Positions 57 through 28,569 of a DNA stretch of 64,000 nucleotides are shown here, piece by piece. Source of the stretch: Oscillospiraceae bacterium (lineage in GTDB: Bacteria > Bacillota > Clostridia > Oscillospirales > Acutalibacteraceae); NCBI GenBank assembly GCA_015065685.1, contig SVPU01000008.1:6769-70768 (forward strand), read 5' to 3'. Numbering within the stretch: the stretch's first letter is position 1; each line of letters opens with the position of its first letter. The translations under genes were made by a program, and so were the position numbers. Under the pieces are notes generated by a model. The model saw only the letters and a list, made by a program, of their open reading frames with translations, was not told where the DNA came from and made no database searches.

Positions 57-1448
57 TTAGTTTTTGCAGAACTTAGAAACAACGAATGTTGCAACAACAG
101 CAAGACCAACGATAGAAATTAATGTAACAACAACGTTGTTTGAATCGCCTGTTACAGGAATAGGCTTAGTTGTGTTGTTATTATTGGTGTTTGCACCTGT
201 ATTAGTATCAGCACCTGTGCCGGCACCGGTATTGTTACCGCCTTCAATATTTCCGCCGCCCTGGTTGTTATCGCCAGCAGGAGCATCCTTGAACCAGCCG
301 TTCTTCATCTGTGCAACATTGTTGTACTTACCGATGATACCGTAAACAGTAACAGTGTCGCCAACAGCAGGCTTTTCAGCTATTTCATCAAAACGAACAG
401 AACCGTCTTCGTTATATGTACCATAAATAGTAAGAATGTTACCTTCAGCATCCTTAATCTTCATGTTACCATACTGTTCATTGTAGATTTCAGTGATTTC
501 GCCGGTAACATAATATTTGTTAGTGGTGTAAACATTGTGGTCCTTAGAAGCGCCAAGGTCGATAGCTTCTTTAACAGTAAGAACGGTATCAGCAGCAGGA
601 TCATTGTTTACAGGAGGAGTACCAGGAGTGTGAGCAACAATCCAAGCATTCTTCATCTGTGGAGTAGTGTTGTACTTACCGATAATACCATAAAGTTTAA
701 CAGTGTCGCCTGCTGCGGGCTGAGTAGCCATAGCATCAAAACGGTTGGTACCGTCTGCATCGTATGAGCCGTAGATAGTAAGAGAATTACCGTTAGCATC
801 TTTAATGTTCATGTTACCATACTGTGTATTAGAAATGCTTGTGATAACGCCTTCAACATAGTACTTTCCTGAAGTATATTCGTTGTGTTCTTTAGTCTCG
901 CCAAGAGCAAGAGCTTCAACGATAGTTAATGTGCTGTCAGCAGGAGGATCCTGATTTACAGGAGGAGGAGTAACACTTGCACCTTCATAGTAAACAACGA
1001 GGCTATTTACACGAGCCTGACCATCAGAAAGTGTGAATGTGAAGCTTGTTGCAGCTGCAGCGGGTGTAAATGTTACAACACTATCGTTAGCAGTAGCTTC
1101 GGCGCCGATAGACTTTTTCAAAGAGGTTGCATAACTACTAGAGTTAGCAGTGAATTCAATTTTTTTGATTGCAGAAGTATATTCTACTTTAAGAGTTGAA
1201 TTTTTGTAGAAACGAGCGGGATTAGCATAGTCAGCAACAGAGCTTGTAGAACTTGCTTTTTCATTTGTAACTTTAATACCGTTTTGCTCCCAAACTTGCT
1301 TGCTTGCATCAAAAGATGTGCGCTGTGCTTTGTTAGCAAAAGAAATGGTTGCGCTTGATTCTGCTGCGGATGCTGAAATTACCACAACTGAGAACATCAA
1401 ACATACGCAAACGAGAACTGCAAAAATTTTTTTGATTTGCGATTTCAT
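57..1448 (-). CDS. secreted, probably sortase-anchored surface protein with two tandem OB-fold-like repeats (YhcR-type nucleic-acid-binding module suspected)
   Basis: ORF 57..1526. I moved the start to ATG 1448, which has AAGGAGAA just upstream and gives a signal peptide (MKSQIKKIFAVLVCVCLMFSVVVISASA). There are two ~108-aa repeats (YGNM.IKDA.GN.LTIYG...GDTV..YGIIGKYN..QMKN.W). The C-terminus is IPVTGD, then a hydrophobic helix, then KFCKN, which is an LPXTG-like sorting signal. Confidence 0.8.
   Translation of the reverse strand: MKSQIKKIFAVLVCVCLMFSVVVISASAAESSATISFANKAQRTSFDASKQVWEQNGIKVTNEKASSTSSVADYANPARFYKNSTLKVEYTSAIKKIEFTANSSSYATSLKKSIGAEATANDSVVTFTPAAAATSFTFTLSDGQARVNSLVVYYEGASVTPPPVNQDPPADSTLTIVEALALGETKEHNEYTSGKYYVEGVITSISNTQYGNMNIKDANGNSLTIYGSYDADGTNRFDAMATQPAAGDTVKLYGIIGKYNTTPQMKNAWIVAHTPGTPPVNNDPAADTVLTVKEAIDLGASKDHNVYTTNKYYVTGEITEIYNEQYGNMKIKDAEGNILTIYGTYNEDGSVRFDEIAEKPAVGDTVTVYGIIGKYNNVAQMKNGWFKDAPAGDNNQGGGNIEGGNNTGAGTGADTNTGANTNNNNTTKPIPVTGDSNNVVVTLISIVGLAVVATFVVSKFCKN
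291..968 (-). repeat. in-gene tandem duplication (2 x ~330 nt) encoding the OB-fold-like module
   Basis: Residues ~187-296 and ~303-412 of the ORF align along their full length. The DNA is also visibly similar, e.g. ttcttcatctgtg...gttgtacttaccgat at 301 and at 649. Confidence 0.8.
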
Positions 1449-1625
1449 TTTAAATTTCTCCTTTATTTTAAATTTTATTTTTTCGGAAACACATAGTTTC
1501 CGCAATCGCCAAAAGTAATATATCAATATACAAATATATTATATCATAAAGAAATCTAATGTCAACATTAAAAAACATTTTTTCACTATATATTGTTAAA
1601 TTTTTTTGAGAAATTCACCAATTAT

Positions 1626-1664
1626 AGAAAAAGCAAGGCCAACGGCGATTTCACGCCGCTGGCT
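1626..1664 (-). terminator. intrinsic terminator after the 449-aa lipoprotein gene
   Basis: On the minus strand, gccagcggcg / cgccgttggc forms a stem (one G-U pair) followed by cttgcttttt. It separates the ABC-nuclease operon from the downstream surface-protein gene. Confidence 0.6.
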
Positions 1665-1675
1665 TAAATTAAAAA

Positions 1676-3025
1676 TTATTTATAGAAGTGGCAGAAATAG
1701 CCGTCTTTAGAAGTTACATTAACACCGATGGTGTAGTAGTTGCCATAGGTACTGAATGCACATTCCTGACCGTCAAGAGTTGTAACAAGAGTCTTTAATG
1801 AACTGTTGTATGTAAATACGGTTGATGCGGTATCACGGTAAACTGCGTTTTTATGAGTACCGCTAATTTCCATATTCATATACTGCTTCTTGCCTTCTAC
1901 CATTGTGTAGAGATAGTAACCGCCGTTTGCGTTTTCAAGATATACATCAATAGCAACTGTTGAAGAGGTTGATGTTGCCATATAGTATCCGCTCATACCG
2001 CCGATAGCATAGTAGTTACAGTTTTTAGCGGTCTGGAAGAAACCAAACTTATAAGCAGTACCAACTACGGGAGTATCAACAACAGAAAGAACTTTTTCTT
2101 CAACCTTACCAGCTACGAGTTTGATTAAAGCAACTTCGGTCTGGCTTGCATCATCCCAAGTGAACTCAACATCACCCGCGGTGTCTGCGTCATCATAGAA
2201 GAAGTTCTTAATAACACCTCTGCAAGTAATAGTATCGCCTATTTTAACCTTGCTTGTTTCTGTGCCCTTCATATTCCAGCATTTGATATTTTTGCCTTCA
2301 ACTGTCATTGTAACAGAAATGCTGCTATATTGAGCATTATATTCTCTGTCAATGCTTACAACCTTACCTGTAAGTTGTGCAATGTAAGGTGTGGTTTCGT
2401 TTCTGCCAAGTGCAAAAGCATCCTTAAGGATTTTTGCAGTATCAGTAACGAGTGATAACTGAGTGTTGCCTGCGTTTCCGCTGTTTCCTGTGTTACCGCT
2501 ATTTCCGCTATTGCCGGTATTTCCGGAGTTGGTGGGCTTGCTGGTGGTATCGGTGTTACCTGCATTGTCAGAAGCGGTGCCATCAGTAGCATCATCTGTA
2601 TTAGCATCGTCATCTGAGCCTTCAACGTTAATGCCTGCTACCTTGTATTCAAATTTAGCTTCAGCAGTATTTTTCTTTTCTTTAACAGTTGCAATAGCTG
2701 TGAAGAGAATGTCTTCCTCGGGAAGATCAGGGATATCGATAATTACATAGTTATCTTTTTCAGATTCGCTAATCTTAACAGAATCCTTGTCGCCTTCTTT
2801 AACCTTTACGGACCATTCAACCTCATAGGTTTTACCATCAACAGTAACAACAGATAAAACTTCCTGGTCAACTGAAAGGTTCATAGGTTCGCTCTTGCTG
2901 CCCTTTTGATACATATTAACGAGATATGCTGCTGCATTCTCAAGGTCAGCGTTTTTCTCGCCGCAACCTACGAAAAGTGTAGCAATCATAAGTAAACATA
3001 AAACTGCACTAATAATTCTTTTCAT
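1676..3025 (-). CDS. lipoprotein of unknown function with a Gly/Asn/Ser/Thr low-complexity linker and one OB-fold-like module
   Basis: Lipobox LFVGC in MKRIISAVLCLLMIATLFVGCGEK. Linker is SGNTGNSGNSGNTGNSGNAGNT. The segment ALGRNETTPYIAQLTGKVVSIDREYNAQYSSISVTMTVEGKNI...GDTITCRGVIKNF follows the same pattern as the repeats in the 57..1448 protein. An RBS aaaggaaa lies 18 nt after the nuclease stop. Confidence 0.75.
   Translation of the reverse strand: MKRIISAVLCLLMIATLFVGCGEKNADLENAAAYLVNMYQKGSKSEPMNLSVDQEVLSVVTVDGKTYEVEWSVKVKEGDKDSVKISESEKDNYVIIDIPDLPEEDILFTAIATVKEKKNTAEAKFEYKVAGINVEGSDDDANTDDATDGTASDNAGNTDTTSKPTNSGNTGNSGNSGNTGNSGNAGNTQLSLVTDTAKILKDAFALGRNETTPYIAQLTGKVVSIDREYNAQYSSISVTMTVEGKNIKCWNMKGTETSKVKIGDTITCRGVIKNFFYDDADTAGDVEFTWDDASQTEVALIKLVAGKVEEKVLSVVDTPVVGTAYKFGFFQTAKNCNYYAIGGMSGYYMATSTSSTVAIDVYLENANGGYYLYTMVEGKKQYMNMEISGTHKNAVYRDTASTVFTYNSSLKTLVTTLDGQECAFSTYGNYYTIGVNVTSKDGYFCHFYK
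2461..2530 (-). repeat. short in-frame 9/18-nt repeats encoding (S/A)GN(T/S)GN
   Basis: gtttccgctgtttcctgtgttaccgctatttccgctattgccggtatttccgga is a run of imperfect ttccg/ttacc nonamers. Confidence 0.7.
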
Positions 3026-3043
3026 AATAATTTCCTTTCTTTC

Positions 3044-4411
3044 TTAACGAACAATAATATCTTTTGCGGAAAATACTTTGATTTGATAAGCACCGCTGAA
3101 ATAATCAACAATACCTGTCACATCAATGGTTTTATTAAGAAAATCTGCTTCAGTTAAAAGTCTGCCATTATCATCATAAAGAACGATGGTACGAACATCA
3201 ATCGGTAGACCGTTTGCCTCGCAGGACAAGGTCATTGCACCGTCCGAATCGCCGCCATTATGTGTTGTATAGATACTCTTAACCTTGAGATTTTTCATAC
3301 TAATGGAAGTGCTCATTGCAAGGTTAGCATATTCAAAAGTTTTAACGGTTGTTTCTTCACTATTCAAAGCATTCATAGTTTCAATATCCAAAGTGCCTCT
3401 TGTGAAGAGCTCTGGTGAAGTTTCCTTGTTAGCCGCGCTGTTACCCTCGCTAATCATAATTGTATTACTCGGGTCATTAGGCTTGAATTCGCGGTAGCTA
3501 AGACCGGATACCTGCCATGTTCCGCCCGTTTCGTAATAAGTAACAGTACCAACAACGCGCACACGGTTGCCAACCTTTAAAATGTTAAGCAAGGCACCTG
3601 TTTCGTATCCATAATAAACCGACATTCCGTAATACATATCGGTTTCAGCGTCATAGCTTTCAACATAAACCGAGTTGTTGTTATTGCGTGTTATAACACC
3701 CTCAAATGCAACCTTTGCATTATCATAAAGCGAAATGTTTGTACGAAGTCCTTTAAGGTCTACCTCATACGCATCACCATAGAAGAAATCAGGGTCTTTT
3801 GCACCTGAAAAAACATGGAGCTTTTGCGCTTTTGCTTGTTGGAAAGCATTAGAAGCTGCTGTGCCGTAGCGGTCAGCAGTTGTACCGCAGGAAATTGATA
3901 AGCCGTTTTGGATAAGCTCGAGATTCAAGCAACGGTAATCTTCACTGTCAGCAGTTTTATACCAAACCCAAACCAAGTGGCGTCCGCCTGTAGAATCCAC
4001 ATTCCATTGATCGTTATCCGACTCAACAATAATTGAGGTGGCTTTTTCTAATTTTCCTCTTGTGAAGAGTGAAGCCTTTTTGCCCCACTCTTCGATTTTA
4101 CCTGTCGATTCAGGTGTGTTTACACCCATATAACGCGCTTTTAAAACACCGTCTGCGCTAATACTTTCGGGAACGAAGAAATGAGTTGTGTCGCCATCAA
4201 TAAAGCTTTTAACAGTAACCTCTTGCTTCTTGGTTTCCGATTTCAAGTTAAGCTTTGTTTCTGCAACATAATCAACGGTGCTTGAGCCATCAGTTTTCTG
4301 AGTGTCGGTATCCTTGCCATCACAGCCTGCAAAAACCGAGACTATAAGACATAATACCGCTAATAATGATATAAGTTTTTGAAAGGTTTTAGTATTCATA
4401 TTTTTAAACAT
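3044..4411 (-). CDS. lipoprotein thermonuclease (staphylococcal nuclease fold) followed by two OB-fold-like domains
   Basis: Lipobox VFAGC. SNase motifs IDGDTTHF, ARYMGVNTPES and GGRHLVWVW align with staphylococcal nuclease DGDT / RLLLVDTPE / GRGLAYIY. The C-terminal half has two OB-like segments (GNRVRVVGTVTYYETGGTWQV and TIDVTGIVDYFSGAYQIKV). The start ATG overlaps the upstream stop (TAATG). Confidence 0.85.
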   Translation of the reverse strand: MFKNMNTKTFQKLISLLAVLCLIVSVFAGCDGKDTDTQKTDGSSTVDYVAETKLNLKSETKKQEVTVKSFIDGDTTHFFVPESISADGVLKARYMGVNTPESTGKIEEWGKKASLFTRGKLEKATSIIVESDNDQWNVDSTGGRHLVWVWYKTADSEDYRCLNLELIQNGLSISCGTTADRYGTAASNAFQQAKAQKLHVFSGAKDPDFFYGDAYEVDLKGLRTNISLYDNAKVAFEGVITRNNNNSVYVESYDAETDMYYGMSVYYGYETGALLNILKVGNRVRVVGTVTYYETGGTWQVSGLSYREFKPNDPSNTIMISEGNSAANKETSPELFTRGTLDIETMNALNSEETTVKTFEYANLAMSTSISMKNLKVKSIYTTHNGGDSDGAMTLSCEANGLPIDVRTIVLYDDNGRLLTEADFLNKTIDVTGIVDYFSGAYQIKVFSAKDIIVR

Positions 4412-5835
4412 TAATATTCACACTCATCAATTGCTTCTTGGAAAGCATCGTCAATTAACTTATCAACAGCCTTTTCGTCAGCAGCCTCACCGCTTAAGCA
4501 CTTAAGCAACAATGCACCAACCTGTGTACGTGCAGATGATGAACCGTTAAATGCGGGAGAAACGAAATAATCATCACGGCCGTCAATACCAACCTTAACG
4601 CACTTAGCAACGAGATATTCGTAACCGTTACCTTTATTAAGCCAAGCTGCATAATTTTCATTTTCTGTAACAGATTTAAGAACGGGCATATAACCTGAAG
4701 CCATTGAGAATTCTGCCTGGAACTCAACGTTTGTGCAAAGGAACTTAACAAACAACCAAGAAGCTAAAACCTGCTGGTCAGTTGTGTTTTTGCCCTTTAA
4801 GATACAAAGGCTGGGACCCTGAGAAATTGTCTTGCGGTTGTCTTCATCAAACTGAGGAATCGGTGCAACGCCAACTTCGAAAGCAAAGCTACCATCTCCG
4901 GTATCGTTGTTAGACATCTGATAAGAAGCACCACCAGAAGAGCCTACGCACATATAGCAACGAGTATCAGTTGTTTCTACGAAGAGGTTGGAGGTATAGC
5001 TACCGTATAATTCCTGTGTGGTGAAATAACCTTTCTGATAATACTCACGCAATTCTTTTACGAATGCTTTGTTTTTATCATTGTTAAAGAGATACTGTCC
5101 GCCGTCTTCTGCGCTTGTGTAGCCTGTTTTCATCTGTTCGCACAAGGTGATAAACCAGTTGTCTTCAGCGTCATATCCTAACGGATAGCAATCAGGGTCA
5201 ATCTTCAAAATCTTTTCGCAAGTGTCCCAAAGCTCATCCCAAGTGGTAGGAACCTTAAGATTATTTGCTTCGAAGAAGGTTTTATCGTAATAAAGAACTT
5301 CGGTAGACTTATTAAGAGGCATGGTATACATTAAATCATCGCCATAAGCCAAGCCTTCATTATAATAGCTTTCAATAAAGTCTTTTTTCTGCTCATCGGT
5401 AAGACCAATGATTTCATCTTTACCTTCGATAGCGATATCACTTTCAATTAAGTTATCCAAGGTTACAACTGACTTTGCAATGTTATACATAGCAACATGG
5501 TCGGGATAACAGTAAGCAATATTTGGCTGTGTTCCGCCGGCAATCTCGGTGTTAATCTGACCGTTTATATCAGACCAACCACCTGCTGACTGGTGAGTGA
5601 TTTGGATGTTAGGGTAGATTTTGTTGAACTCTGTAATATAGGTGTTAAGTACATCCTGTAATTTAGCACCCATAGTGTGAGTAAATGTGATTTCGACTGT
5701 CTCGTCGGGATTGAAGCCTGCTTCGGGAACTTCAAAGGCTTTTTGTGCACTGCCGCCAAGTCCGCAACCTGCAAGGCTGCACATACCAAGCACCATAACG
5801 CACATAAGGATTAAGCTGATAATTTTCTTTTGCAT
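4411..5835 (-). CDS. ABC transporter substrate-binding lipoprotein, family 1 (CUT1 type)
   Basis: Lipobox SLAGC. Length and composition are typical of sugar/polyol/glycerophosphate-type binding proteins. It lies directly downstream of two MalF/MalG-type permease genes. Confidence 0.85.
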   Translation of the reverse strand: MQKKIISLILMCVMVLGMCSLAGCGLGGSAQKAFEVPEAGFNPDETVEITFTHTMGAKLQDVLNTYITEFNKIYPNIQITHQSAGGWSDINGQINTEIAGGTQPNIAYCYPDHVAMYNIAKSVVTLDNLIESDIAIEGKDEIIGLTDEQKKDFIESYYNEGLAYGDDLMYTMPLNKSTEVLYYDKTFFEANNLKVPTTWDELWDTCEKILKIDPDCYPLGYDAEDNWFITLCEQMKTGYTSAEDGGQYLFNNDKNKAFVKELREYYQKGYFTTQELYGSYTSNLFVETTDTRCYMCVGSSGGASYQMSNNDTGDGSFAFEVGVAPIPQFDEDNRKTISQGPSLCILKGKNTTDQQVLASWLFVKFLCTNVEFQAEFSMASGYMPVLKSVTENENYAAWLNKGNGYEYLVAKCVKVGIDGRDDYFVSPAFNGSSSARTQVGALLLKCLSGEAADEKAVDKLIDDAFQEAIDECEY

Positions 5836-5888
5836 GCTGAATAATTCCTTTCAATTGATAATTTATATAACAGACATAAAACTGTCTA

Positions 5889-6782
5889 TTAACCTTTAAT
5901 ACCGCCGCGGCTAACGCCCGACATAATGTATTTGCGCAAGCACAAGAATACGAGGAACAACGGTGCCGAAACAATTGCAACCGCTGCCATCTGAACAGGG
6001 TAATTCGCCTGTCCCGATGTATCAGTAAACGCATTACGCAAACCGTTGGTTATCATTTGATGCGCATCATCATTAGCAACCAATTTAGGCCAGATATATG
6101 AGTTCCAAGCGCCCATCATCTTCAATATTGTTATAGAAATAAGAGTGGGTAATGCTAACGGAATCATAACCTTCCACAAATACTTAATATCTGATGTTCC
6201 ATCCACCTTAGCAGCCAAATACAATTCATTCGGAATCTGCATAAAGTTTTGTCTTAACAAATAAATATAGAACACACTTACCAAGAACGGCACAATAAGA
6301 GCTGTAAATGTGTGCATCCATCCTAATTCGTTAATAGTTATATAGTTGGTAATGGTAAACAACTCGCCCGGAATCATCATCGTTGCAAGTAAAGCGCCGA
6401 ACAATGTTTCTTTGCCCTTGAACTCAAGACGAGCAAAAGCGAAAGCAGATAAAACTGTTATTACCAAACTGAGTATTGTAGAAACAACACCAACATAAAG
6501 GGTGTTCATAAACAAATCACCGAGGTGAGCGGTTGTGAACGCTTCAACATAGTTGTTAAACATTAATTGACGCGGCCAGAAAGTAGGAACTGCCTGACGG
6601 TATTCAGCTAATGTTTTAAGTGATGAAATAATCATCCAATAGAATGGAAAAAGAACAATAAGAGCCATTATCAGAAGAAAAGCATATGTGCCTGTCTTAG
6701 CCAAAACACGGGCAATTTTCTGACCTGTGGATAATTTTTGAATGTCTCTTTCCTTCATAACATTAATTGTATTTTTAGCCAT
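5889..6782 (-). CDS. CUT1 ABC transporter permease (MalG/UgpE-like)
   Basis: Six predicted TM segments. EAA loop LYLAAKVDGTSDIKYLWKVMIPLALP. Confidence 0.9.
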   Translation of the reverse strand: MAKNTINVMKERDIQKLSTGQKIARVLAKTGTYAFLLIMALIVLFPFYWMIISSLKTLAEYRQAVPTFWPRQLMFNNYVEAFTTAHLGDLFMNTLYVGVVSTILSLVITVLSAFAFARLEFKGKETLFGALLATMMIPGELFTITNYITINELGWMHTFTALIVPFLVSVFYIYLLRQNFMQIPNELYLAAKVDGTSDIKYLWKVMIPLALPTLISITILKMMGAWNSYIWPKLVANDDAHQMITNGLRNAFTDTSGQANYPVQMAAVAIVSAPLFLVFLCLRKYIMSGVSRGGIKG

Positions 6783-6795
6783 AACGCGCCACCTC

Positions 6796-7734
6796 CTAAT
6801 AATGAACGCGTTTCTTAATAACCTTATTATTAATTAAGGTTACAATAAGAATAATCGCGAACAGAATAAGTGCCGCAGCACTAGCACGGCCTTGACGGTC
6901 TCTCTCCAATGCATCGTAAACGAAACCAACCATTGTATTAAGTCTTCCCGCATCATCTGCAGGACCCATCTTATCACCGAAGATACCAATGATGCTTGAG
7001 TATTCTTTAAATCCACCTATGAAGCCTGTAATAATAACATAAGCGAGCATTGGTGATAAAAGCGGAACAGTGATTTTGGTCAACACTCGGCGTTTAGAAG
7101 TGCCATCAACCTTAGCAGCATCGTAATACTGCTTGTTAATGCTCTGCAAGCCGCCCAAAAGAATGAGTATTTTAAACGGCAAAGCATTCCACACAATATA
7201 AATAACCATAACTACGATGTTAGCTATATAGGAAGAACCTGCGTTTATCCAGTTAATAGGCTCGCCGCCAAAGAACTGAATAACATTGTTGATTATTCCC
7301 CAAGTGTCTGCCATTGCACTTCCCTGCTTAAGACCAACAATATTAAACATTGCCGCAAACACCATGCCGATAGCTATAGAGTTTGTAACATATGGCAAGA
7401 AGAATATTGTTTGCAAGGTCTTTTGCAGAGGCTTAATGGAATTAAGGGCTACTGCAATAAGTAACGCAAGAATAGTTGAAATCGGAACAGTAGCCACGCA
7501 CAAAATTGCTGTATTTTGTAAGCACTGTAAAAATTCTTTATATTCTATAACTTTAAGGAAATTTTCAATACCGAACTCAAAGGTAGCACCGCCAATAGCA
7601 GCCATATTACCGTATCCGTTTAAAAAAGCCATACGCAATGTGTTGAAAATCGGCCAAACGGTAAAGACTAACAATAGGATAATAGCCGGCGCCAAATAGA
7701 GCCAGGATTTCCATTGATGTTTATTTTCAACCAT
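6796..7734 (-). CDS. CUT1 ABC transporter permease (MalF/UgpA-like)
   Basis: Polytopic membrane protein. EAA loop YYDAAKVDGTSKRRVLTKITVPLLSP. Confidence 0.9.
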   Translation of the reverse strand: MVENKHQWKSWLYLAPAIILLLVFTVWPIFNTLRMAFLNGYGNMAAIGGATFEFGIENFLKVIEYKEFLQCLQNTAILCVATVPISTILALLIAVALNSIKPLQKTLQTIFFLPYVTNSIAIGMVFAAMFNIVGLKQGSAMADTWGIINNVIQFFGGEPINWINAGSSYIANIVVMVIYIVWNALPFKILILLGGLQSINKQYYDAAKVDGTSKRRVLTKITVPLLSPMLAYVIITGFIGGFKEYSSIIGIFGDKMGPADDAGRLNTMVGFVYDALERDRQGRASAAALILFAIILIVTLINNKVIKKRVHY

Positions 7735-7735
7735 T

Positions 7736-8839
7736 TTATTTCACCTCAAAATATACACGTTCTTCGGTTTCTTTATTGAACATAAAGAACTTATGAGGCT
7801 TAATGTTGAACTTAATTGTCTCAGCAGTTGTATCAACCTTGATATCTGAATTAATAATAGCGCGAATAACAGGGTTAAGAGAAGCTTCGTGTGTAGCAAC
7901 CACGCTTGCATCGCGGCCCATAACTTCAACATTGTTGAGCTTGCACTCTAAAGCGCCGTTTGCATTAGGCTCAATTCCTTCGGGGCGTATACCAATATAT
8001 ACGTCCTGATCCTCAACGCCGTTAACTTCCATAACAGCTTCTTCGCCTATGTATACCTTACCGCCTTTAACAGCACCCTCGAGTACATTTATGGGAGGTG
8101 TGCCCAAGAACTTTGCAACGAATAAGTTTTTAGGATCATCATAAACCTTTTGAGGTTCACCAATTTGCTGAACAACACCCGCTTTCATTACAACAATAAC
8201 ATCAGAAATAGACATTGCTTCTTCCTGGTCGTGTGTAACGAATACGGTGGTAATTCCTGTTTCTTTTTGAATTCTGCGGATTTCTTCACGAGTTTGCAAA
8301 CGAAGACGCGCATCAAGGTTTGAAAGCGGTTCGTCAAGTAAAAGCACTCTCGGCATTTTAACAAGCGCACGCGCGATAGCCACACGCTGTTGCTGACCAC
8401 CTGACAACTCACTCGGCTTTCTGTCCATCAATTCATCAATCTGAACTAATCTTGCAGCTTCATAAGCACGGTCAAGCATTTCCTGTTTAGAAAGCTTGTC
8501 CTTACCTGTTAAGTTTTGTAACGGGAACAAAACATTCTGCATAACCGTCATATGAGGATAAAGCGCATAGTTTTGGAAAACAAGGCCAATACCTCTGTTT
8601 TCGGTGGAAAGCTCGGTAACATCATCGTCGCCGAAAAAGATTTTGCCGCTGGTGGGCTTTTGCAGACCACTAATCATATAAAGAGTGGTGCTCTTTCCGC
8701 AACCGGATGGTCCCAACAAGCCTACAAGCTGACCGTCAGGAATTTCAAAGGTGAAATCGTTTACAGCCACTACTTCTTTGCCCGCTTTTTTATCACGGCT
8801 AGGGAAAATTTTTGTCAGATTTTGCAATACAACTTTCAT
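7736..8839 (-). CDS. ABC transporter ATP-binding protein (MalK/UgpC/MsmK type with C-terminal regulatory domain)
   Basis: Walker A GPSGCGKST, signature LSGGQQQRVAIARAL, Walker B LLLDEPLSNLD. The ~130-aa C-terminal extension is typical of this subfamily. Confidence 0.95.
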   Translation of the reverse strand: MKVVLQNLTKIFPSRDKKAGKEVVAVNDFTFEIPDGQLVGLLGPSGCGKSTTLYMISGLQKPTSGKIFFGDDDVTELSTENRGIGLVFQNYALYPHMTVMQNVLFPLQNLTGKDKLSKQEMLDRAYEAARLVQIDELMDRKPSELSGGQQQRVAIARALVKMPRVLLLDEPLSNLDARLRLQTREEIRRIQKETGITTVFVTHDQEEAMSISDVIVVMKAGVVQQIGEPQKVYDDPKNLFVAKFLGTPPINVLEGAVKGGKVYIGEEAVMEVNGVEDQDVYIGIRPEGIEPNANGALECKLNNVEVMGRDASVVATHEASLNPVIRAIINSDIKVDTTAETIKFNIKPHKFFMFNKETEERVYFEVK

Positions 8840-8876
8840 ATTGACTCCCTTTCAAAAAATAATTTAATAACTTATG

Positions 8877-9638
8877 CTAATACGCCGACTTTTCGGCACG
8901 CTCAGCATGAATTTTCTTAGTGTATTCAATCAATTCTTCTCTGTTTTCAAAAATTCTCTGACTCGCTATATCCACTGCAACAGTACCCGACATAACATCG
9001 TGCAAAAGAGAATTTGTTCGGCTTGTGATAAGGCATATAACCTCAACCGCTAAAATAACAATGAAAATAATACCGCCCATAAAACCGATTAAATTGAAGA
9101 AAATCATCATTATAACACTCAGCGGAATCATAATCTCAATAGCGAATTTTCCTAAAATCGCACGGGCAAATAGCTGAAGATTGCTAACCTTAATTCCTTC
9201 AACATGCATAAGCCCAATGCCGAAAATTTTCTTGCCGGCCGTTTGTCCGTTCCCCAAAATCAGCGGCATTGCAAACTCAACGATAAGCACACCTATCAAA
9301 ATACTGAGCGTTGCAATAAGAAGAGTGAGATTAATCAACATATTATCAGAATAAACCACTTTTTCATCTTGGTTTAAGGCCTTATATGCGGCATCATAAT
9401 TTTCTCGTTGCTCATCGGAAAGCTCTTCATATTTTTCCTGTGTTAGATTAAATTCTACATTATATTCTGTTTCATATTTTTCGTAAGCTTCATTTACGGT
9501 ATTCATATGACTATCGTATCCGAAAGCCGCCGAGAGTAGTGTTGCAAAGCCAACAACTAACAAGCTCAAAAAAATAAAATCAAAAATAGCAGCTATAATG
9601 CGCTTGCCAAAATTTGCTTTTTGTAAATCAATCATCAT
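8877..9638 (-). CDS. RDD-family membrane protein
   Basis: ORF 8877..9740. Start moved to ATGATG at 9638, preceded by GGGAGC. N-terminus ANFGKRIIAAIFDFIFLSLLVV is typical of RDD proteins. Only 37 nt and no terminator separate it from the ABC ATPase gene. Confidence 0.7.
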   Translation of the reverse strand: MMIDLQKANFGKRIIAAIFDFIFLSLLVVGFATLLSAAFGYDSHMNTVNEAYEKYETEYNVEFNLTQEKYEELSDEQRENYDAAYKALNQDEKVVYSDNMLINLTLLIATLSILIGVLIVEFAMPLILGNGQTAGKKIFGIGLMHVEGIKVSNLQLFARAILGKFAIEIMIPLSVIMMIFFNLIGFMGGIIFIVILAVEVICLITSRTNSLLHDVMSGTVAVDIASQRIFENREELIEYTKKIHAERAEKSAY

Positions 9639-9765
9639 ATAATTGCTCCCAGCGTTATTCAACGCGCAATTTTTTTGCATACATATATATAATACAATCT
9701 TATATATAAAAACGCAAGTATGTTTTTTAATTTTTTGCAAAAAAATGTCGTTTTAAAATAAAATC

Positions 9766-9794
9766 TTGTCATCAGTACATATAAGTAGTATAAT
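9766..9794 (+). promoter_or_regulatory. sigma-A-type promoter for the tandem nucleotidase gene
   Basis: TTGTCA (9766-9771), a 17-nt spacer, then TATAAT (9789-9794), about 60 nt upstream of the ATG at 9857. Confidence 0.55.
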
Positions 9795-9856
9795 TATCTT
9801 AAGATTTTAACTTATTTCGTTAAAAATAATTCAAATTTTATAAAATGGTGGAAGAT

Positions 9857-12349
9857 ATGAAGAAAATTATAAAATACTGCGTATTACCGCTCCTGATTTT
9901 TTCAATTTTACTTAGCAGCTGCGATAATAAGCAAAACGGTTGCAAAAAACATACCGATTCCGATAATAACGGTATATGCGAGGTTTGTGAGAATTCCGTT
10001 TTCACTTATTACAATTTTTACACTGTTAACGACCTATCAAGCAGTCAAACAGATACAGCACAGCTTACAGAATATCTTGAGAAGGTTCGCGAAGCTGATG
10101 AGAATGCTGTTTTTCTCTCGGCAGGCAATATGCTAAAGGGCGATATTGGACAAGATATATCCGAATGGATGAACGAGCTTGAATTTTCTGCAATGACACT
10201 TGGCAACCTGGATTTAAATTTAGGTGTTGAAGATTTAAAGAAAAGTGAAAAAGAAGCAGATTTCCCCTTCCTTGCCATCAATATTTTTGCCCGCAAAAAC
10301 GATAAGCGTGCCAAATTCTGCTCTCCCTCAACAATAATTAAATTCGATGATTTGCAAATTGGTGTTATTGGTGCTGTTGGCGACTGCTATTCCGAAATTG
10401 AACCCAATAGTATCAACGATTACTATTTTAAAACCGGTTCAGAGCTTACTAAGCTTGTTAAAGATGAAGCTAACCGTTTGCGCAAAAAAGGTGCGGACTA
10501 TATCATTTATTTACTACACGAAGGCTTCACTCAGAGCAACAAGGAGTCTGTTCAGCAGGTTTCGGGTGCGGACATATATACATATTATGATATTTCTTTA
10601 TCAGATGGTTATGTTGACCTTGTTTTCGAAGGACATACCTCACAATCCTATCAGCTTGTCGATAGCTGCAATGTATATCATTTGCAGAACAGCGGTGATG
10701 CGAATGCCGCAGTTTCTTATGCTCAAATTGCCTACAACACGGTTTTAAAGACAACCGATTTAAACGCTTCAAAGCTAATCACGGTTACCGAAGAGGAAAT
10801 TTCTAACATTGTTATCCCATCTGAAGATACAATTGACGACAACAACGATGATGACACCAATAATACAATCGGAAATTCAGACAAGCCCTCTTCCCCCACT
10901 CAAAACAATTCGAATTCGGGCTGCAAAAAACATACCGACAGTGATGACAATGGCATTTGTGATTCCTGTTCGGGCTCGGTTTTGGTTTATTTTGATTTTT
11001 ATAACATCAATGACCTTCACGGAAAACTTGCCGACGGCACCAACCATCCGGGTGTTGATGAATTAACCACATATCTAAAAAATGCTCGCAAAACAGACCA
11101 AAACGCCATTTTCCTCTCGACAGGCGATATGTGGCAAGGCGCATCTGAATCTAATATGACCAAAGGGCTTATTATGACCGACTGGATGAACGAATTGGAT
11201 TTCTCAGCTATGGCTATTGGCAACCACGAGTTTGACTGGGGTGAAGAATATATTGCAGATAATGCGGATTTTGCAGAATTCCCACTCTTAGCAATCAATA
11301 TTTACGACCGCGATACAAACAAAATTTCCGATTTTTGCAAGCCCTCGGTAATGGTTGAAGCAGATGGCTTGCAGATTGGAATTATCGGCGCTATAGGCGA
11401 CTGTTATTCATCGATTGCAGTTGATAAATGTGATGATGTTTATTTCAAGGTCGGAAGTTCATTAACCTCACTTGTGAAAGCAGAATCAAAAAAGCTTCGT
11501 AATCAGGGCGCGGATTTCATTGTGTATATTATACATGATGGCTATGGTCGTTCACAATCGGGAACAGTTTCATCCTCGCAAATTTCTTCTTATTATGATG
11601 TCTCCCTTTCCGATGGCTTTATTGACCTTGTTTTTGAGGGCCACACCCACCAAGGTTACACTCTCAAAGACCAATACGGCGTTTATCATCTCCAGAACAG
11701 AGGCGATAACAGTGGTGGCATTTCACACGCAGAGGTTGCGATAAATTCTGTAACATACTCAAAAAACATCACTGCAGCCGAGCTTATTTCAACAAGTGCT
11801 TACAGTTCTTTAAGCGATGACCCAATTGTTGAAAAGCTACTTAGCAAATATGATGAACAAATATCTCCTTCAAAGCTTGTTTTAGGTTATAACAGTTCTT
11901 ACAGAAACAGCAATTTTTTACGGCAATTAAGCGCGGATTTATACTATAAAAAGGGCCTTGAGCTATGGGGCAATAAATATAACATTGTTTTAGGCGGTGG
12001 CTTCACTTCAATCAGAAGCCCTTATAATCTCGCCGCGGGAAATGTAACCTATGCAAATTTGCAATCCCTCTTCCCCTTTGATAACAATCTCACACTTTGC
12101 TCTATAAAGGGCAGTGATTTGCGCTCAAAGTTTTTCGAAACCGACAATTCCGACTATTATATATCTTACGGTGATTACGGCAGTAGCGTTAAACAGAATA
12201 TCAACCCAACCGCCACTTATTACATTGTGGTTGATACCTACACTGCGTTCTACAAACCCAATCGGCTCACCGTGCTTGAAACTCTCGATCAGGATGTATT
12301 TATGCGAGATTTATTCGCGGAATACATTCAAAACGGCGGCTTATCATAA
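9857..12349 (+). CDS. lipoprotein with two tandem calcineurin-type metallophosphoesterase (5'/3'-nucleotidase N-domain) modules plus one nucleotidase C-terminal domain; first module degenerate
   Basis: Start at ATG 9857 (GGTGGAAG upstream). Lipobox LLSSC. Copy 2 keeps NDLHG, GDMWQG, GNHEFDWG, IIHDG and GHTHQ. Copy 1 reads NDLSS, GNMLKG, GNLDLNLG, LLHEG and GHTSQ. The C-terminal ~200 aa resemble the 5'-nucleotidase substrate-binding domain. Confidence 0.85.
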   Translation: MKKIIKYCVLPLLIFSILLSSCDNKQNGCKKHTDSDNNGICEVCENSVFTYYNFYTVNDLSSSQTDTAQLTEYLEKVREADENAVFLSAGNMLKGDIGQDISEWMNELEFSAMTLGNLDLNLGVEDLKKSEKEADFPFLAINIFARKNDKRAKFCSPSTIIKFDDLQIGVIGAVGDCYSEIEPNSINDYYFKTGSELTKLVKDEANRLRKKGADYIIYLLHEGFTQSNKESVQQVSGADIYTYYDISLSDGYVDLVFEGHTSQSYQLVDSCNVYHLQNSGDANAAVSYAQIAYNTVLKTTDLNASKLITVTEEEISNIVIPSEDTIDDNNDDDTNNTIGNSDKPSSPTQNNSNSGCKKHTDSDDNGICDSCSGSVLVYFDFYNINDLHGKLADGTNHPGVDELTTYLKNARKTDQNAIFLSTGDMWQGASESNMTKGLIMTDWMNELDFSAMAIGNHEFDWGEEYIADNADFAEFPLLAINIYDRDTNKISDFCKPSVMVEADGLQIGIIGAIGDCYSSIAVDKCDDVYFKVGSSLTSLVKAESKKLRNQGADFIVYIIHDGYGRSQSGTVSSSQISSYYDVSLSDGFIDLVFEGHTHQGYTLKDQYGVYHLQNRGDNSGGISHAEVAINSVTYSKNITAAELISTSAYSSLSDDPIVEKLLSKYDEQISPSKLVLGYNSSYRNSNFLRQLSADLYYKKGLELWGNKYNIVLGGGFTSIRSPYNLAAGNVTYANLQSLFPFDNNLTLCSIKGSDLRSKFFETDNSDYYISYGDYGSSVKQNINPTATYYIVVDTYTAFYKPNRLTVLETLDQDVFMRDLFAEYIQNGGLS
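9938..11750 (+). repeat. intragenic duplication (~810 nt units starting at 9938 and 10919)
   Basis: Both units begin G-CKKHTDSD(N/D)NGIC..C and align through ...VYHLQN.GD. The DNA at 9941 and 10921 is nearly identical for about 25 nt (tgcaaaaaacataccga). Confidence 0.85.
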
Positions 12350-12351
12350 CA

Positions 12352-12386
12352 AAAAGGCTTGAGATTTTAGTCTCAAGCCTTTGTAT
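12352..12386. terminator. bidirectional intrinsic terminator between the nucleotidase gene and glnA
   Basis: aaaaaggcttgaga-ttttagt-ctcaagcctttgtatttt: a 10-bp stem flanked by A- and T-runs. Confidence 0.75.
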
Positions 12387-16353: not shown

Positions 16354-16647
16354 ATGCTTAAAAAAGGAAAAAATGACTTTGAAAAATTGTTCAAAGCAAT
16401 TTTAACATTAGAAAATGTAGAGGAATGTGCCGCTTTTTTTGATGATGTTTGCACCATTCAAGAGCTTGAAGCCCTAGCGCAAAGATTAGATGTTGCATGT
16501 GAGCTGCGCAATGGTAAGAGTTATATTGATATTAACAAATCCACAGGGGCAAGCACTGCCACAATCTGCAGAGTCAGCAAGGCTTTGAATTACGGCGATG
16601 GCGGATACAAAACCGCAATAGAAAGGCTAGAGAAAAATGATTTTTAA
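16354..16647 (+). CDS. YerC/YecD-type TrpR-like DNA-binding protein (candidate histidine-operon repressor)
   Basis: ATG 16354 with TAGGAG upstream. The sequence ...FFDDVCTIQELEALAQRLDVA..L..GKSY..I...TGASTATICRV.KAL.YG is the YerC/TrpR-like pattern. Its 3' end overlaps the hisZG start by 11 nt. Confidence 0.8.
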   Translation: MLKKGKNDFEKLFKAILTLENVEECAAFFDDVCTIQELEALAQRLDVACELRNGKSYIDINKSTGASTATICRVSKALNYGDGGYKTAIERLEKNDF

Positions 16648-18196
16648 CCAGAATATTTTAAAATTTGATGAAAAGGCAGTTTTTATTCTGCGTGAGCTTT
16701 ATTCTAAATACGGCTATCGTCAGTTTAAAATGAGCAAGTTCGAAGAATATGACCTTTATTCTAAAAACAAGGATTTCCTCGTTTCTGACGGTGTTATCAC
16801 CTTTAACGATACTAACGGTAAGCTTTTGGCCCTAAAGCCTGACGTTACACTTTCAATCATCAAAAATTCACAAGATGCGAAAGGTGTTACCGAAAAGTTT
16901 TATTATAACGAGAATGTTTACAGAATTTCAGAAAGTTCTCACACTTATAAGGAAATTATGCAAACAGGTCTTGAGTGCATTGGTGAAATCGGCGAAAGTG
17001 AAATTTTTGAGGTTACCGAGCTTGCCGCTAAAAGCCTTAGTTTAATTGATAAGGATTTTATGCTGCATTTATCACATATTGGACTTATAAATGCTTTATT
17101 TGATGAATACAAGGTTAACGAATCGGTTGCCGATAAAATCACCGAGGCAATAACCGAAAAGAATGCGGGCATTTTAAAAAGCCTTTTAAGTGAAAGCCAA
17201 TTCAATGCATTGAAAGTGCTTGTGAAGAGCTATGAAAGCACTGCTTCTGCCCTTTCGGCTATAGAAAGCATTGCAAAAAGCGATGCATCGAAATCAGCAT
17301 TCTGCGAACTCAAAAGCACAGTTGCAAATCTTTCAAAAATTGGGTTTAGTGAAAAACTGTCAATTGATTTTTCGATAATTAGTCAAAACAGTTATTACTG
17401 CGGTGTTGTTTTCAAGGGTTATATAAGCGGCATTGCTTCGCGAGTGCTCTCGGGCGGTCAATATGATAAGCTAATGCAAAGAATGGGCAGAAGCTCTTCT
17501 GCTATAGGCTTTGCGGTTTATCTTGACACTCTCGAGCGGCTCCCCGATAAAACCGAAGCAGATGAAATGATAAACATCGCTCTTCCAAAAGGAAGGCTCG
17601 GTGAAAAGGTTTATGCTATGTTTGAAGCGGCTGGGTTTGATTGCCCTTCAATTAAGGAAAACAACCGCAAGCTGATTTTCGAAAACAAGGAAAAAGGCAT
17701 TAGATTTTTCTGGGTTAAGCCCTCTGATGTTGCAATCTATGTTGAGCGTGGGGCAGCCGATATCGGTGTTGCAGGAAAAGATATTCTTTTAGAATACACG
17801 CCCGATGTTTTCGAGCTTTTAGACCTTAATATCGGAAAATGCAGAATGGCGGTTGCAGCTAAAAAAGATTTTTGTGATGACACATCAAAAACCCTGAGAG
17901 TTGCAACCAAGTTTTCGAACATTGCAAAAAATTATTATGCAAAAAAATGCCGTGAAATCGATATCATTCACCTTAACGGCTCAATCGAAATTGCCCCCAT
18001 TTTAGGACTTTCCGATGTTATTGTTGATATTGTTGAAACGGGCAAAACATTGCTCGAAAATGACCTTGCCCCGTTTGAGACAATTACTCCGATAAGTGCG
18101 CGACTCATATCCAACAAAGCGTCGTTTAGCTTTAAGCTTAAGAAAATTGAAGAAATCAAAAAAGGACTATTAAGTCAGGTGAAAACAGATGATTAA
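16637..18196 (+). CDS. hisZG: fused ATP phosphoribosyltransferase regulatory subunit (HisZ, ~310 aa) and short-form catalytic subunit (HisG, 209 aa)
   Basis: The N-terminal part is HisRS-like without an anticodon domain. The C-terminal part from MINIALPKGRLGEKV (ATG 17567) is classic short HisG. There is no stop codon between them and they share one frame. Confidence 0.85.
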   Translation: MIFNQNILKFDEKAVFILRELYSKYGYRQFKMSKFEEYDLYSKNKDFLVSDGVITFNDTNGKLLALKPDVTLSIIKNSQDAKGVTEKFYYNENVYRISESSHTYKEIMQTGLECIGEIGESEIFEVTELAAKSLSLIDKDFMLHLSHIGLINALFDEYKVNESVADKITEAITEKNAGILKSLLSESQFNALKVLVKSYESTASALSAIESIAKSDASKSAFCELKSTVANLSKIGFSEKLSIDFSIISQNSYYCGVVFKGYISGIASRVLSGGQYDKLMQRMGRSSSAIGFAVYLDTLERLPDKTEADEMINIALPKGRLGEKVYAMFEAAGFDCPSIKENNRKLIFENKEKGIRFFWVKPSDVAIYVERGAADIGVAGKDILLEYTPDVFELLDLNIGKCRMAVAAKKDFCDDTSKTLRVATKFSNIAKNYYAKKCREIDIIHLNGSIEIAPILGLSDVIVDIVETGKTLLENDLAPFETITPISARLISNKASFSFKLKKIEEIKKGLLSQVKTDD

Positions 18197-28299: not shown

Positions 28300-28522
28300 A
28301 ATAAAAAGAACGCCACAATACAAAAGGCTTCTTCGCAACATACACCGTCAATTACTCGTGACACATTTGTACTAACAGCTAACGGCAAGTATTCCGACTT
28401 ATCGTGCAGAGTTCGGAGTTCTCTCGGCCCTTAGCCTTCCCACAAAACGCAGTGACATAATTTAAGGGCTTTAACACGAATTACGGCGACGAGTTCGCAG
28501 AGGAATTGCACCTCTATTCCAG
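28300..28522 (-). promoter_or_regulatory. cobalamin (B12) riboswitch with terminator and anti-RBS elements
   Basis: The minus strand reads AATAGAGGTGCAATTCCTCTGCGAACTCGTCGCCGTAA...CACTGCGTTTTGTGGGAAGGC...AAGTCGGAATACTTGCCG. These match the conserved GGTG..A.TCC, GCC(A/G)..GTAA and CACTG..GGGAAG blocks and the B12 box. It is followed by an aagaagcc/ggcgttctt hairpin plus a T-run, and by ctccttttgta, which is complementary to the RBS region tacaaaggag. Confidence 0.85.
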
Positions 28523-28533
28523 TTTAAATCTTC

Positions 28534-28569
28534 TAAAAAAGATACCGCCAGCCTTTGCTAAGCGGTATC
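28534..28569 (-). terminator. intrinsic terminator of the ABC-F gene
   Basis: gataccgc / gcggtatc stem followed on the minus strand by tttttt. Confidence 0.7.

Follow-up and report, generated by a model that had tools for sequence, protein, structure and literature searches.

We asked what an ATP-binding cassette (ABC) importer of the CUT1 type does in an operon that also encodes a staphylococcal nuclease-like (SNase) lipoprotein and a lipoprotein with an OB fold. The operon lies in a stretch of 64,000 nucleotides, hereafter the window, from an Oscillospiraceae bacterium (assembly GCA_015065685.1, contig SVPU01000008.1, positions 6,769 to 70,768, forward strand), where the locus under study occupies positions 57-12349. 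An earlier note on this DNA had proposed that the locus binds extracellular DNA or RNA, cuts it to 3′-nucleotides, dephosphorylates these and imports a product through the CUT1 system. We consider it probable that the locus serves to scavenge extracellular DNA or RNA at the cell surface, by capture, SNase digestion and import of a small product. Gene linkage, OB folds, the nuclease active site and the affiliation of the substrate-binding protein (SBP) support the capture, digestion and uptake parts of the proposal, whereas its dephosphorylation chain is not established.

To define the gene content of the locus, an open reading frame (ORF) map and searches against Pfam and NCBIfam were applied to all nine locus products (Table 1). 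Over positions 57-12349 the map placed all nine ORFs where the earlier note had drawn them, and the family assignment of every gene was backed by both databases. Seven genes, running from an RDD-family membrane protein to the OB lipoprotein, form a minus-strand unit with junctions of 37, 1, 13, 53, −1 and 18 nt, where the −1 junction is an overlap of 1 nt between the SBP stop and the SNase start. The only convincing minus-strand terminator within 57-12349, at 1663-1638, lies past this unit. The genes, families and tight junctions described earlier for the unit, and the lack of a terminator inside it, were therefore borne out, and we predict that the seven genes are co-transcribed. Lipoboxes were identified in the SBP (LAGC), the SNase lipoprotein (FAGC), the 1676-3025 lipoprotein (FVGC) and the divergently encoded nucleotidase (LSSC).

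The SNase lipoprotein consists of an SNase domain at about residues 60-200 (PF00565 at 35.3 bits, cut-off 21) followed by OB domains at about 210-310 and 330-455. Alignment with staphylococcal nuclease showed that the motifs IDGDT, R, (N/D)TPE and GGR are kept across homologues and that the counterparts of Asp21, Arg35, Thr41, Glu43 and Arg87 are intact in the window protein, which is predicted to be an active nuclease. The AlphaFold2 (AF2) model of the protein has a moderate predicted local distance difference test score (pLDDT) of 69, with about 90 in the C-terminal domain. Foldseek matched this model to staphylococcal nuclease (TM-score TMt ~0.7) and its C-terminal half to Teb1-AB, HIN, RPA and SSB, each at a probability of 1.0, and the model suggests that this half folds as two OB domains of the nucleic-acid-binding type. 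The window derives from a metagenome-assembled genome of the Ruminococcaceae/Acutalibacteraceae type; an NCBI protein of a "Ruminococcaceae bacterium" is 100% identical to its SNase lipoprotein, which is also encoded on a JGI metagenome contig. The earlier description of an SNase-fold lipoprotein with two OB-like domains was correct, and the comparison of folds sets those domains among nucleic-acid binders.

In the OB lipoprotein, the AF2 model (pLDDT 80) contains an Ig-like N-terminal domain, a disordered linker rich in Gly, Asn, Ser and Thr, one OB domain (residues ~190-305) and a beta-rich C-terminal module (320-449). Its earlier designation as OB-like thus describes one domain of a protein that has several. 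A profile made from the two repeats of the sortase-anchored OB protein encoded beyond the operon matched residues 201-276 of the lipoprotein at 7e-25, indicating an OB family common to both. PF01336 was found in 8 of 25 homologues of the lipoprotein, and it scored over its cut-off (37.5, 43.1 and 29.9 bits) in the gene that follows the SNase gene of three distant loci. A whole-chain Foldseek search with the lipoprotein returned only weak multi-domain matches (lysenin, Sap S-layer and Ig proteins; E > 1e-3), and profile searches of Pfam and PDB returned no match for the C-terminal module (window 1676-2065).

Several further observations concern the OB lipoprotein and its relatives. The linker is encoded by 9/18-nt tandem repeats at 2464-2525, and its length probably varies among strains. 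The C-terminal module, some 130 aa long, shares 47% identity with part of the sequence of secreted Endonuclease_NS proteins (P0349-P0352; L058, 10001-12019), and no CUT1 transporter was found near the gene for one of these, P0349. Domain listings of other relatives of the lipoprotein include cohesin/dockerin, Big_2 and ricin-type lectin domains.

To determine if the association of importer and nuclease extends beyond the window, the SBP was searched against a species-dereplicated genome collection and a metagenome collection. This search gave 135 loci with SBP identities of 46-88%, and the number of loci that could be evaluated differed for each feature (124 for SBP-SNase, 105 for SNase-OB, 92 for RDD-ATPase and 68 for the nucleotidase). 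We found that the seven-gene core of RDD protein, ATPase, two permeases, SBP, SNase-OB-OB protein and OB lipoprotein is kept as a block in the 135 loci. Comparison of SBP neighborhoods, which the earlier note had proposed, showed that in 123 of the 124 loci that could be evaluated, including those with SBP identities as low as 46%, the SNase gene comes directly 3′ of the SBP gene in the same orientation. An OB-family gene follows the SNase gene in 97 of 105 loci, and the RDD gene is directly upstream of the ATPase gene in all but one of 92. The flanks of the core vary by lineage, and because the core is intact while its flanks change, we conclude that the block is held together as its surroundings change. 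The operon is present in at least 56 species-level genomes and in many contigs from human gut, rumen and other animal guts.

The importer itself is of the CUT1 type, with two MalF/MalG-type permeases, a MalK/UgpC-type ATPase and a family-1 SBP, and a Pfam search detected no Bmp-type domain in the nine locus products. The ATPase matched PF00005 at 1.6e-37, with weak matches to OB_MalK and to the CysA C-terminal domain at 1e-4, and its top NCBIfam matches were UgpC, GlcV and MalK. For the 6796-7734 permease the best NCBIfam matches were UgpA and MalF, and for the 5889-6782 permease, of the UgpE/MalG type, the best match was UgpE, all below threshold. UgpB, UgpA, UgpE and UgpC are the best-named NCBIfam matches for all four transporter parts and none reaches its equivalog cut-off (UgpB 59 against 411, UgpA 66 against 335, UgpE 100 against 297 and UgpC 351 against 432 bits). 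The RDD protein matched PF06271 at 45.5 bits (cut-off 24.1); its ORF extends to 9740, and the ATG at 9638, with a GGGAG ribosome-binding site upstream, is the probable start. As a separate observation, the RDD gene heads the importer operon in 91 of 92 related loci, and a Ugp-type operon of Mycoplasma bovis has a gene for a "membrane protein" in that place (PMC12838404).

We considered which ligand the SBP might bind. The protein matched both SBP_bac_8 (115 bits, 7e-33) and SBP_bac_1 (69 bits) over their cut-offs, and in source annotations its homologues are called "multiple sugar transport system substrate-binding protein". A family profile of the SBP searched against PDB ranked the 7c0x/7c0f series first (3.5e-20), ahead of Escherichia coli UgpB (1e-16) and sugar SBPs (~1e-11), and the same series was the closest solved relative in a single-sequence search (8e-14). 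We take the series, 7C0F-7C1B, to be the U3G dinucleotide-binding protein of Thermus thermophilus, although its depositor name reads "sugar ABC transporter" SBP. Chandravanshi, Samanta and Kanaujia are said to have found, in FEBS J in 2021, the U3G ligand endogenously bound to the Thermus protein, and we know of no nuclease context for it. The similarity to 7C0F-7C1B is distant: the window SBP has 474 aa including its signal peptide, compared with a chain of 406 aa, carries extra insertions, and has Trp in place of one phosphate-ligand Tyr. Chandravanshi et al. 2021, as cited in PMC12718374, describe a CUT1 SBP whose ligand is U3G, a dinucleotide joined by a phosphodiester. According to that 2025 article, UgpB, a mycobacterial glycerophosphocholine (GPC) binder and the U3G binder form a separate phosphate-ligand branch of CUT1, whose hallmark is a phosphate held by a pair of Tyr and a pair of Ser residues, and a pair of Trp residues is specific to glycerol phosphate (PMC12718374).

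The ligand residues of the SBP were mapped by an alignment through E. coli UgpB, which has low identity and clear motif contexts. S177, S299, Y382, R436 and G340 of the SBP are invariant in its family and correspond to S121, S247, Y323, R374 and G284 of UgpB, where the Arg and Gly contact the glycerol hydroxyls. The fourth phosphate-ligand position (UgpB Tyr42) is Trp in 11 of 14 sequences, the window protein among them, and Tyr in the other 3. The Trp clamp is lost, with W169 of UgpB replaced by D225 at a variable position and W172 by F228, and the counterpart of UgpB Glu66 is Pro. By profile ranking and these residues, the SBP is provisionally assigned to the phosphate-ligand (UgpB/GPC-binding/U3G-binding) branch of CUT1. 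Since the Ser/Ser/Tyr phosphate residues are kept and both the Trp clamp and Glu66 are gone, the SBP seems suited to a ligand that contains phosphate and is other than glycerol-3-phosphate. An SBP of the phosphate-ligand branch without the glycerol clamp makes a phosphorylated digestion product the most likely cargo, and we tentatively favor a 3′-nucleotide, a dinucleotide or a very short oligonucleotide.

Based on these results, we suggest how the locus might operate. The OB lipoprotein, and in the source lineage also the sortase-anchored OB protein, would hold nucleic acid at the cell surface, where the SNase lipoprotein, with its own two OB domains, would cut it into small products. The lipoprotein SBP would then bind a small product and deliver it to the importer, which consists of the UgpC-like ATPase and the two permeases. 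The RDD membrane protein is a constant component of the unit, and the divergent nucleotidase lipoprotein would be an optional side branch that frees phosphate and nucleosides outside the cell. Scavenging of this kind is partly supported by the linkage of SBP, SNase and OB genes, by OB folds of the nucleic-acid type, by the SNase active site, by the branch to which the SBP is assigned, by the phosphoesterase-like neighbors of nucleotidase-less lineages and by a precedent in mycoplasmas, both of which are discussed below.

The two genes outside the operon differ from it in their conservation. The nucleotidase lipoprotein matched Metallophos at 53.6 bits and 5_nucleotid_C at 27.4 bits (cut-off 23.6), and its best NCBIfam matches were the 5′-nucleotidase half of a multifunctional nucleotidase family and UshA. 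Self-alignment showed that the protein is an internal duplication, with the 5′-nucleotidase C-terminal domain following module 2. The motifs of module 2 (NDLHG, GD, GNHEFD and GHTH) are intact, and those of module 1 are degenerate (NDLSS, GD deleted, GNLDLN and GHTS). From its motifs module 1 looks like a pseudo-enzyme, and only module 2 looks catalytic. The tandem nucleotidase-type modules of the earlier note are thus a true duplication in the divergent position it had described, one copy of which lacks the catalytic motifs. A Cys-rich motif, GCKKHTDSD(N/D)NGIC(E/D)xC, stands ahead of each module copy, and many relatives of the nucleotidase have a single module only.

The sortase-anchored protein, a secreted product of 463 aa, has an N-terminal domain followed by OB repeats at about residues 172-279 and 288-395, which match PF01336 at 25.3-25.4 bits (cut-off 27) and also tRNA_anti_2. 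It ends in IPVTG, a hydrophobic stretch and a basic tail, and its gene is reached from the operon through the terminator at 1638-1663 and then the promoter at 1538-1565. An LPXTG-like anchored protein with two OB-like repeats behind a terminator had been predicted earlier and is indeed encoded there, with repeats that score 25.3 bits. Among related loci, the anchored protein is missing from nearly all of those in the 54-60% identity tier, with one partial match (L085), and a divergent nucleotidase gene accompanies the core in 31 of the 68 loci that could be evaluated. We conclude that the nucleotidase and the anchored OB protein, which the earlier note had counted as parts of the locus, are so in the window and are lineage-specific accessories outside the conserved core.

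Other genes adjoin the core where the nucleotidase is absent. A PHP-domain gene lies beside the RDD gene in about 10 nucleotidase-less loci (L062 at 3115-3963, L047 at 5265-6110 and about 8 more), and its product best matches RNase RNM and 3′,5′-nucleoside bisphosphate phosphatase, below cut-off. In about 17 further nucleotidase-less loci (L105 at 2314-3976 and about 16 more) the gene beside RDD encodes an HAD hydrolase with weak, sub-cut-off similarity to pyrimidine 5′-nucleotidases, and a 5′-3′ exonuclease gene adjoins it. Because these matches are under curated cut-offs, they are hints and not assignments. From such hints, a nucleotide-phosphoesterase partner seems to recur in differing forms among lineages.

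We next weighed other explanations for the locus, beginning with the possibility that the imported molecule is unphosphorylated. Bacteria generally strip phosphate from nucleotides before uptake, and a nucleoside or deoxyribose could enter the cell once the nucleotidase lipoprotein, or a different phosphatase at the surface, has removed the phosphate outside. In favor of this, the window and 31 of the 68 evaluable loci have a divergent gene for a surface nucleotidase, and metabolomics has connected an M. bovis permease of the UgpE type with the import of nucleosides (PMC12838404). We nevertheless regard this explanation as unlikely, because more than half of the evaluable loci have no nearby nucleotidase and an unchanged core, and because the Ser/Ser/Tyr residues that coordinate phosphate in the UgpB/U3G branch are retained in the SBP. 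Additionally, the nucleotidase is a 5′ enzyme by its best match and fits 3′ SNase products poorly, and the neighbors found in nucleotidase-less lineages are likely to be cytoplasmic phosphoesterases. Another possibility is a phosphate-scavenging locus, in which a Ugp-like importer takes up glycerophosphodiesters or another non-nucleic organophosphate while nuclease and nucleotidase free phosphate in parallel. For each of the four transporter parts the best-named match is a Ugp component, the SBP has both the phosphate-coordinating residues and the Arg/Gly of the glycerol-hydroxyl contacts in UgpB, and the Thermus relative is also reported to bind glycerophosphocholine. However, scores far under the equivalog cut-offs (59 against 411 for the SBP), together with loss of the Trp clamp and of the Glu66 counterpart, make such an importer quite improbable. 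No glycerophosphodiesterase domain was detected by Pfam in the nine products and no pst or pho genes were seen among the neighbors examined (~12.4-30.5 kb), and the SBP and SNase genes, which overlap translationally and are almost never apart, are hard to square with functions that merely run in parallel.

It would be highly improbable, in our judgment, that the operon encodes an ordinary oligosaccharide importer with which nuclease and OB proteins are merely co-located, for example for remodeling of an extracellular DNA matrix or for attachment. The annotation of SBP homologues as multiple sugar transport proteins points that way, and so do the ability of the OB fold to bind oligosaccharides, a faint CBM65 match (E = 0.014) in the N-terminal part of the anchored protein, and the occurrence of homologues of the OB lipoprotein module with cohesin/dockerin, Big_2 and ricin-type lectin domains. 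In contrast, there is no glycoside hydrolase in or beside the conserved block, the profile search put sugar SBPs well behind the phosphate-ligand branch, the OB families and structures matched by the OB domains are of the nucleic-acid-binding kind, and linkage to the SNase gene is near-obligate.

Several results weigh against nucleic-acid scavenging as we have described it. SNase yields 3′-phosphates, whereas the nucleotidase is 5′-specific by best match, and the two enzymes may not act in series; this mismatch is the reason that a linear chain of cutting, dephosphorylation and import is not established. At position 40 the window SNase has Asn instead of the Ca2+ ligand Asp, and homologues have Asp or Asn. 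All 135 loci belong to one order (metagenome-assembled genomes of the Oscillospirales type) and many of the metagenome loci are near-duplicates, so common descent may account for some of the synteny. A single relative (L047) has lost its SNase gene and yet keeps transporter and OB protein, and its 715-aa OB protein, examined for a substitute nuclease domain, showed none. A paralogous SBP of 32% identity in a Lachnospiraceae genome (L057) has no nuclease or RDD neighbor, and the linkage therefore stops short of distant paralogues. (That SBP, at 9968-11581, has a hydrophobic C-terminal tail as well as an N-terminal signal, and related ATPase and permease genes adjoin it.) The PHP and HAD neighbors, found in a minority of loci, match named families only below cut-off. 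Likewise, every transporter component scores far under the curated cut-offs of any named transporter, and thus the substrate is not readable from homology. The alignment of SBP and UgpB is one of low identity in which the Tyr42 phosphate ligand is Trp in the window protein; entries 7C0F-7C1B, which we presume to be the U3G binder, are labeled by their depositor only as a "sugar ABC transporter" SBP. Finally, the linkage, the gene content, the folds and the conserved active site are shown, whereas binding of nucleic acid, nuclease activity, transcription as one unit and the molecule transported are predictions.

The logic of a nuclease-coupled importer is already known from mycoplasmas. Their SNase lipoprotein nucleases sit in or beside sugar/Ugp-type ABC "nucleotide transporter" operons (PMC3585158, PMC4045577, PMC9740415, PMC12115388), and in the published model DNA is bound by a lipoprotein (MslA/P80) and digested by the nuclease, after which the ABC system takes up the precursors. 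Examples are M. agalactiae MAG_5030-5070, where the nuclease/transporter operon is polycistronic, M. bovis MBOVPG45_0307-0311 and M. gallisepticum mslA-MGA_0676-ABC (PMC3585158, PMC4045577, PMC9740415); M. hyopneumoniae mhp379, M. pneumoniae MPN133 and M. genitalium MG_186 belong to the same group. Likened by gene descriptions, both systems combine an SNase surface lipoprotein with another lipoprotein, a pair of permeases and an ATPase of the sugar/Ugp type. The window system differs in that its host belongs to a walled gut/rumen Clostridia lineage and not to the Mollicutes, its nuclease bears two OB domains, and RDD is its fixed first gene. In addition, DNA binding is assigned by prediction to OB-fold lipoproteins in the window and to MslA/P80 in mycoplasmas, and the window adds an optional sortase-anchored OB protein and a nucleotidase. 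What is new in the window system is the walled gut/rumen Clostridia host, the fusion of SNase with two OB domains, the OB capture lipoproteins, the fixed RDD gene and the strength of the linkage.

A single protein of Bacillus subtilis, YhcR, combines the same set of domains; it is a sortase-anchored, Ca2+-dependent, sugar-non-specific nuclease. Its PF01336-type OB, SNase, metallophosphoesterase and 5′-nucleotidase C-terminal domains and its LPXTG-type signal are all represented in the window. As the earlier note had pointed out, the same domains that YhcR carries in one polypeptide are here split over four genes, encoding three lipoproteins and one anchored protein. YhcR has no dedicated transporter, whereas the SNase and OB lipoprotein genes of the window are inside an ABC importer operon.

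Among transporters, E. coli UgpBAEC, an importer of sn-glycerol-3-phosphate and glycerophosphodiesters, provides the best-named matches for the four parts, and the Ser/Ser/Tyr and Arg/Gly residues of UgpB are kept. It differs from the window importer in the sub-equivalog scores, in Trp169/Trp172 and Glu66, which are not kept, and in gene order, and the window locus has no ugpQ-type diesterase. Nucleoside ABC importers of the BmpA/PnrA (CUT2) type, which include mycoplasma P48 (PMC12892991), likewise pair a lipoprotein SBP with an ABC importer and salvage nucleic-acid building blocks, the function we propose for the window system, but their SBP belongs to another family and the transporter to another subfamily. 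For M. bovis, work published in 2025 pointed to a role of a UgpE-type permease in nucleoside import; the operon concerned, MBOVPG45_0751-0747, encodes a membrane protein, a GtsA ATPase, two UgpE-type permeases and a lipoprotein (PMC12838404). By description, this order of membrane protein, ATPase, permease, permease and lipoprotein is that of the window, although the M. bovis operon is without a nuclease and its evidence points toward nucleosides. Because the mycoplasma operons, the U3G-binding SBP and the M. bovis permease are already published, the suggestion in the earlier note that the locus represents an undescribed substrate class for CUT1 does not hold.

Bacterial uptake of phosphorylated nucleotides and short oligonucleotides is poorly documented, and the mycoplasma model, cited from 2007 onward, still awaits a demonstrated substrate. 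For the uptake of nucleic-acid fragments the operon provides another test case, independent of the first and found very widely, and the SBP, the SNase-OB-OB nuclease and the OB proteins are soluble lipoproteins that could be expressed and assayed without culturing the host. If correct, nucleic-acid scavenging would reveal a route by which abundant gut commensals live on DNA or RNA from the diet, the host and microbes, and it would add fragments of nucleic acid to the glycerophosphates handled by the phosphate-ligand branch of CUT1. A bolder proposal, which we consider less likely than not, is that these operons are the first non-Mollicute family of ABC importers for intact phosphorylated nucleic-acid fragments (3′-nucleotides, dinucleotides and nano-oligonucleotides). 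Such importers would be coupled at the surface to their own SNase-OB nuclease and OB capture proteins, would be widespread in gut and rumen Oscillospirales, with RDD as a previously unrecognized fixed accessory, and might be the walled-Firmicute forerunner from which the mycoplasma "nucleotide transporter" operons arose.

Table 1. Features of the locus, listed along the operon and then outward, with the positions they occupy in the window.
Feature	Positions	Strand	Basis or remarks
RDD-family membrane protein	8877-9638	minus	operon gene 1; PF06271
ABC ATPase, MalK/UgpC type	7736-8839	minus	PF00005
Permease, UgpA/MalF-like	6796-7734	minus	PF00528
Permease, UgpE/MalG-like	5889-6782	minus	PF00528
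Family-1 substrate-binding lipoprotein (SBP)	4411-5835	minus	SBP_bac_8, SBP_bac_1
SNase lipoprotein with two OB domains	3044-4411	minus	PF00565; AF2 and Foldseek
OB lipoprotein, Ig-like N-terminal domain	1676-3025	minus	AF2; profile search
Intrinsic terminator closing the seven-gene operon	1638-1663	minus	10-bp stem, 8 G-C pairs, T-rich tail
Sigma-70-type promoter of the anchored OB protein gene	1538-1565	minus	TTGACA-16-TATAAT, extended -10 (TG), 12/12 consensus positions
Anchored OB protein, IPVTG sorting signal	57-1448	minus	463 aa; two OB repeats
Divergent intergenic region	9639-9856	both units	promoter-like sites toward each
Nucleotidase-type lipoprotein, duplicated metallophosphoesterase module	9857-12349	plus	Metallophos, 5_nucleotid_C
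Bidirectional terminator hairpin, interval between nucleotidase gene and glnA	12353-12382		

Signals outside the operon were also examined. Hairpins at 7-37 and 12353-12382 close the outer genes, those for the anchored protein and the nucleotidase, and a plus-strand promoter-like sequence, TTGTCA-17-TATAAT, is found at 9766-9794 in the divergent intergenic region. An Rfam search gave no match in the locus and no known riboswitch in 9639-9856, and scans of the locus for inverted and tandem repeats found nothing operator-like, only AT-rich imperfect palindromes. The neighbors of the locus are housekeeping genes, glnA and a histidine operon. Horizontal acquisition was considered and rejected, as the GC content resembles that of the flanks and the neighbors are housekeeping genes. 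Competence-type DNA uptake was rejected as well, as no com genes are present. Elsewhere in the window, a cobalamin riboswitch (Rfam RF00174, 70.9 bits) on the minus strand at 28367-28564 is the sole Rfam match, and the first gene of the histidine operon (16637-18196, plus strand) is one ORF that joins a HisZ-like (tRNA-synt_His) part to HisG.

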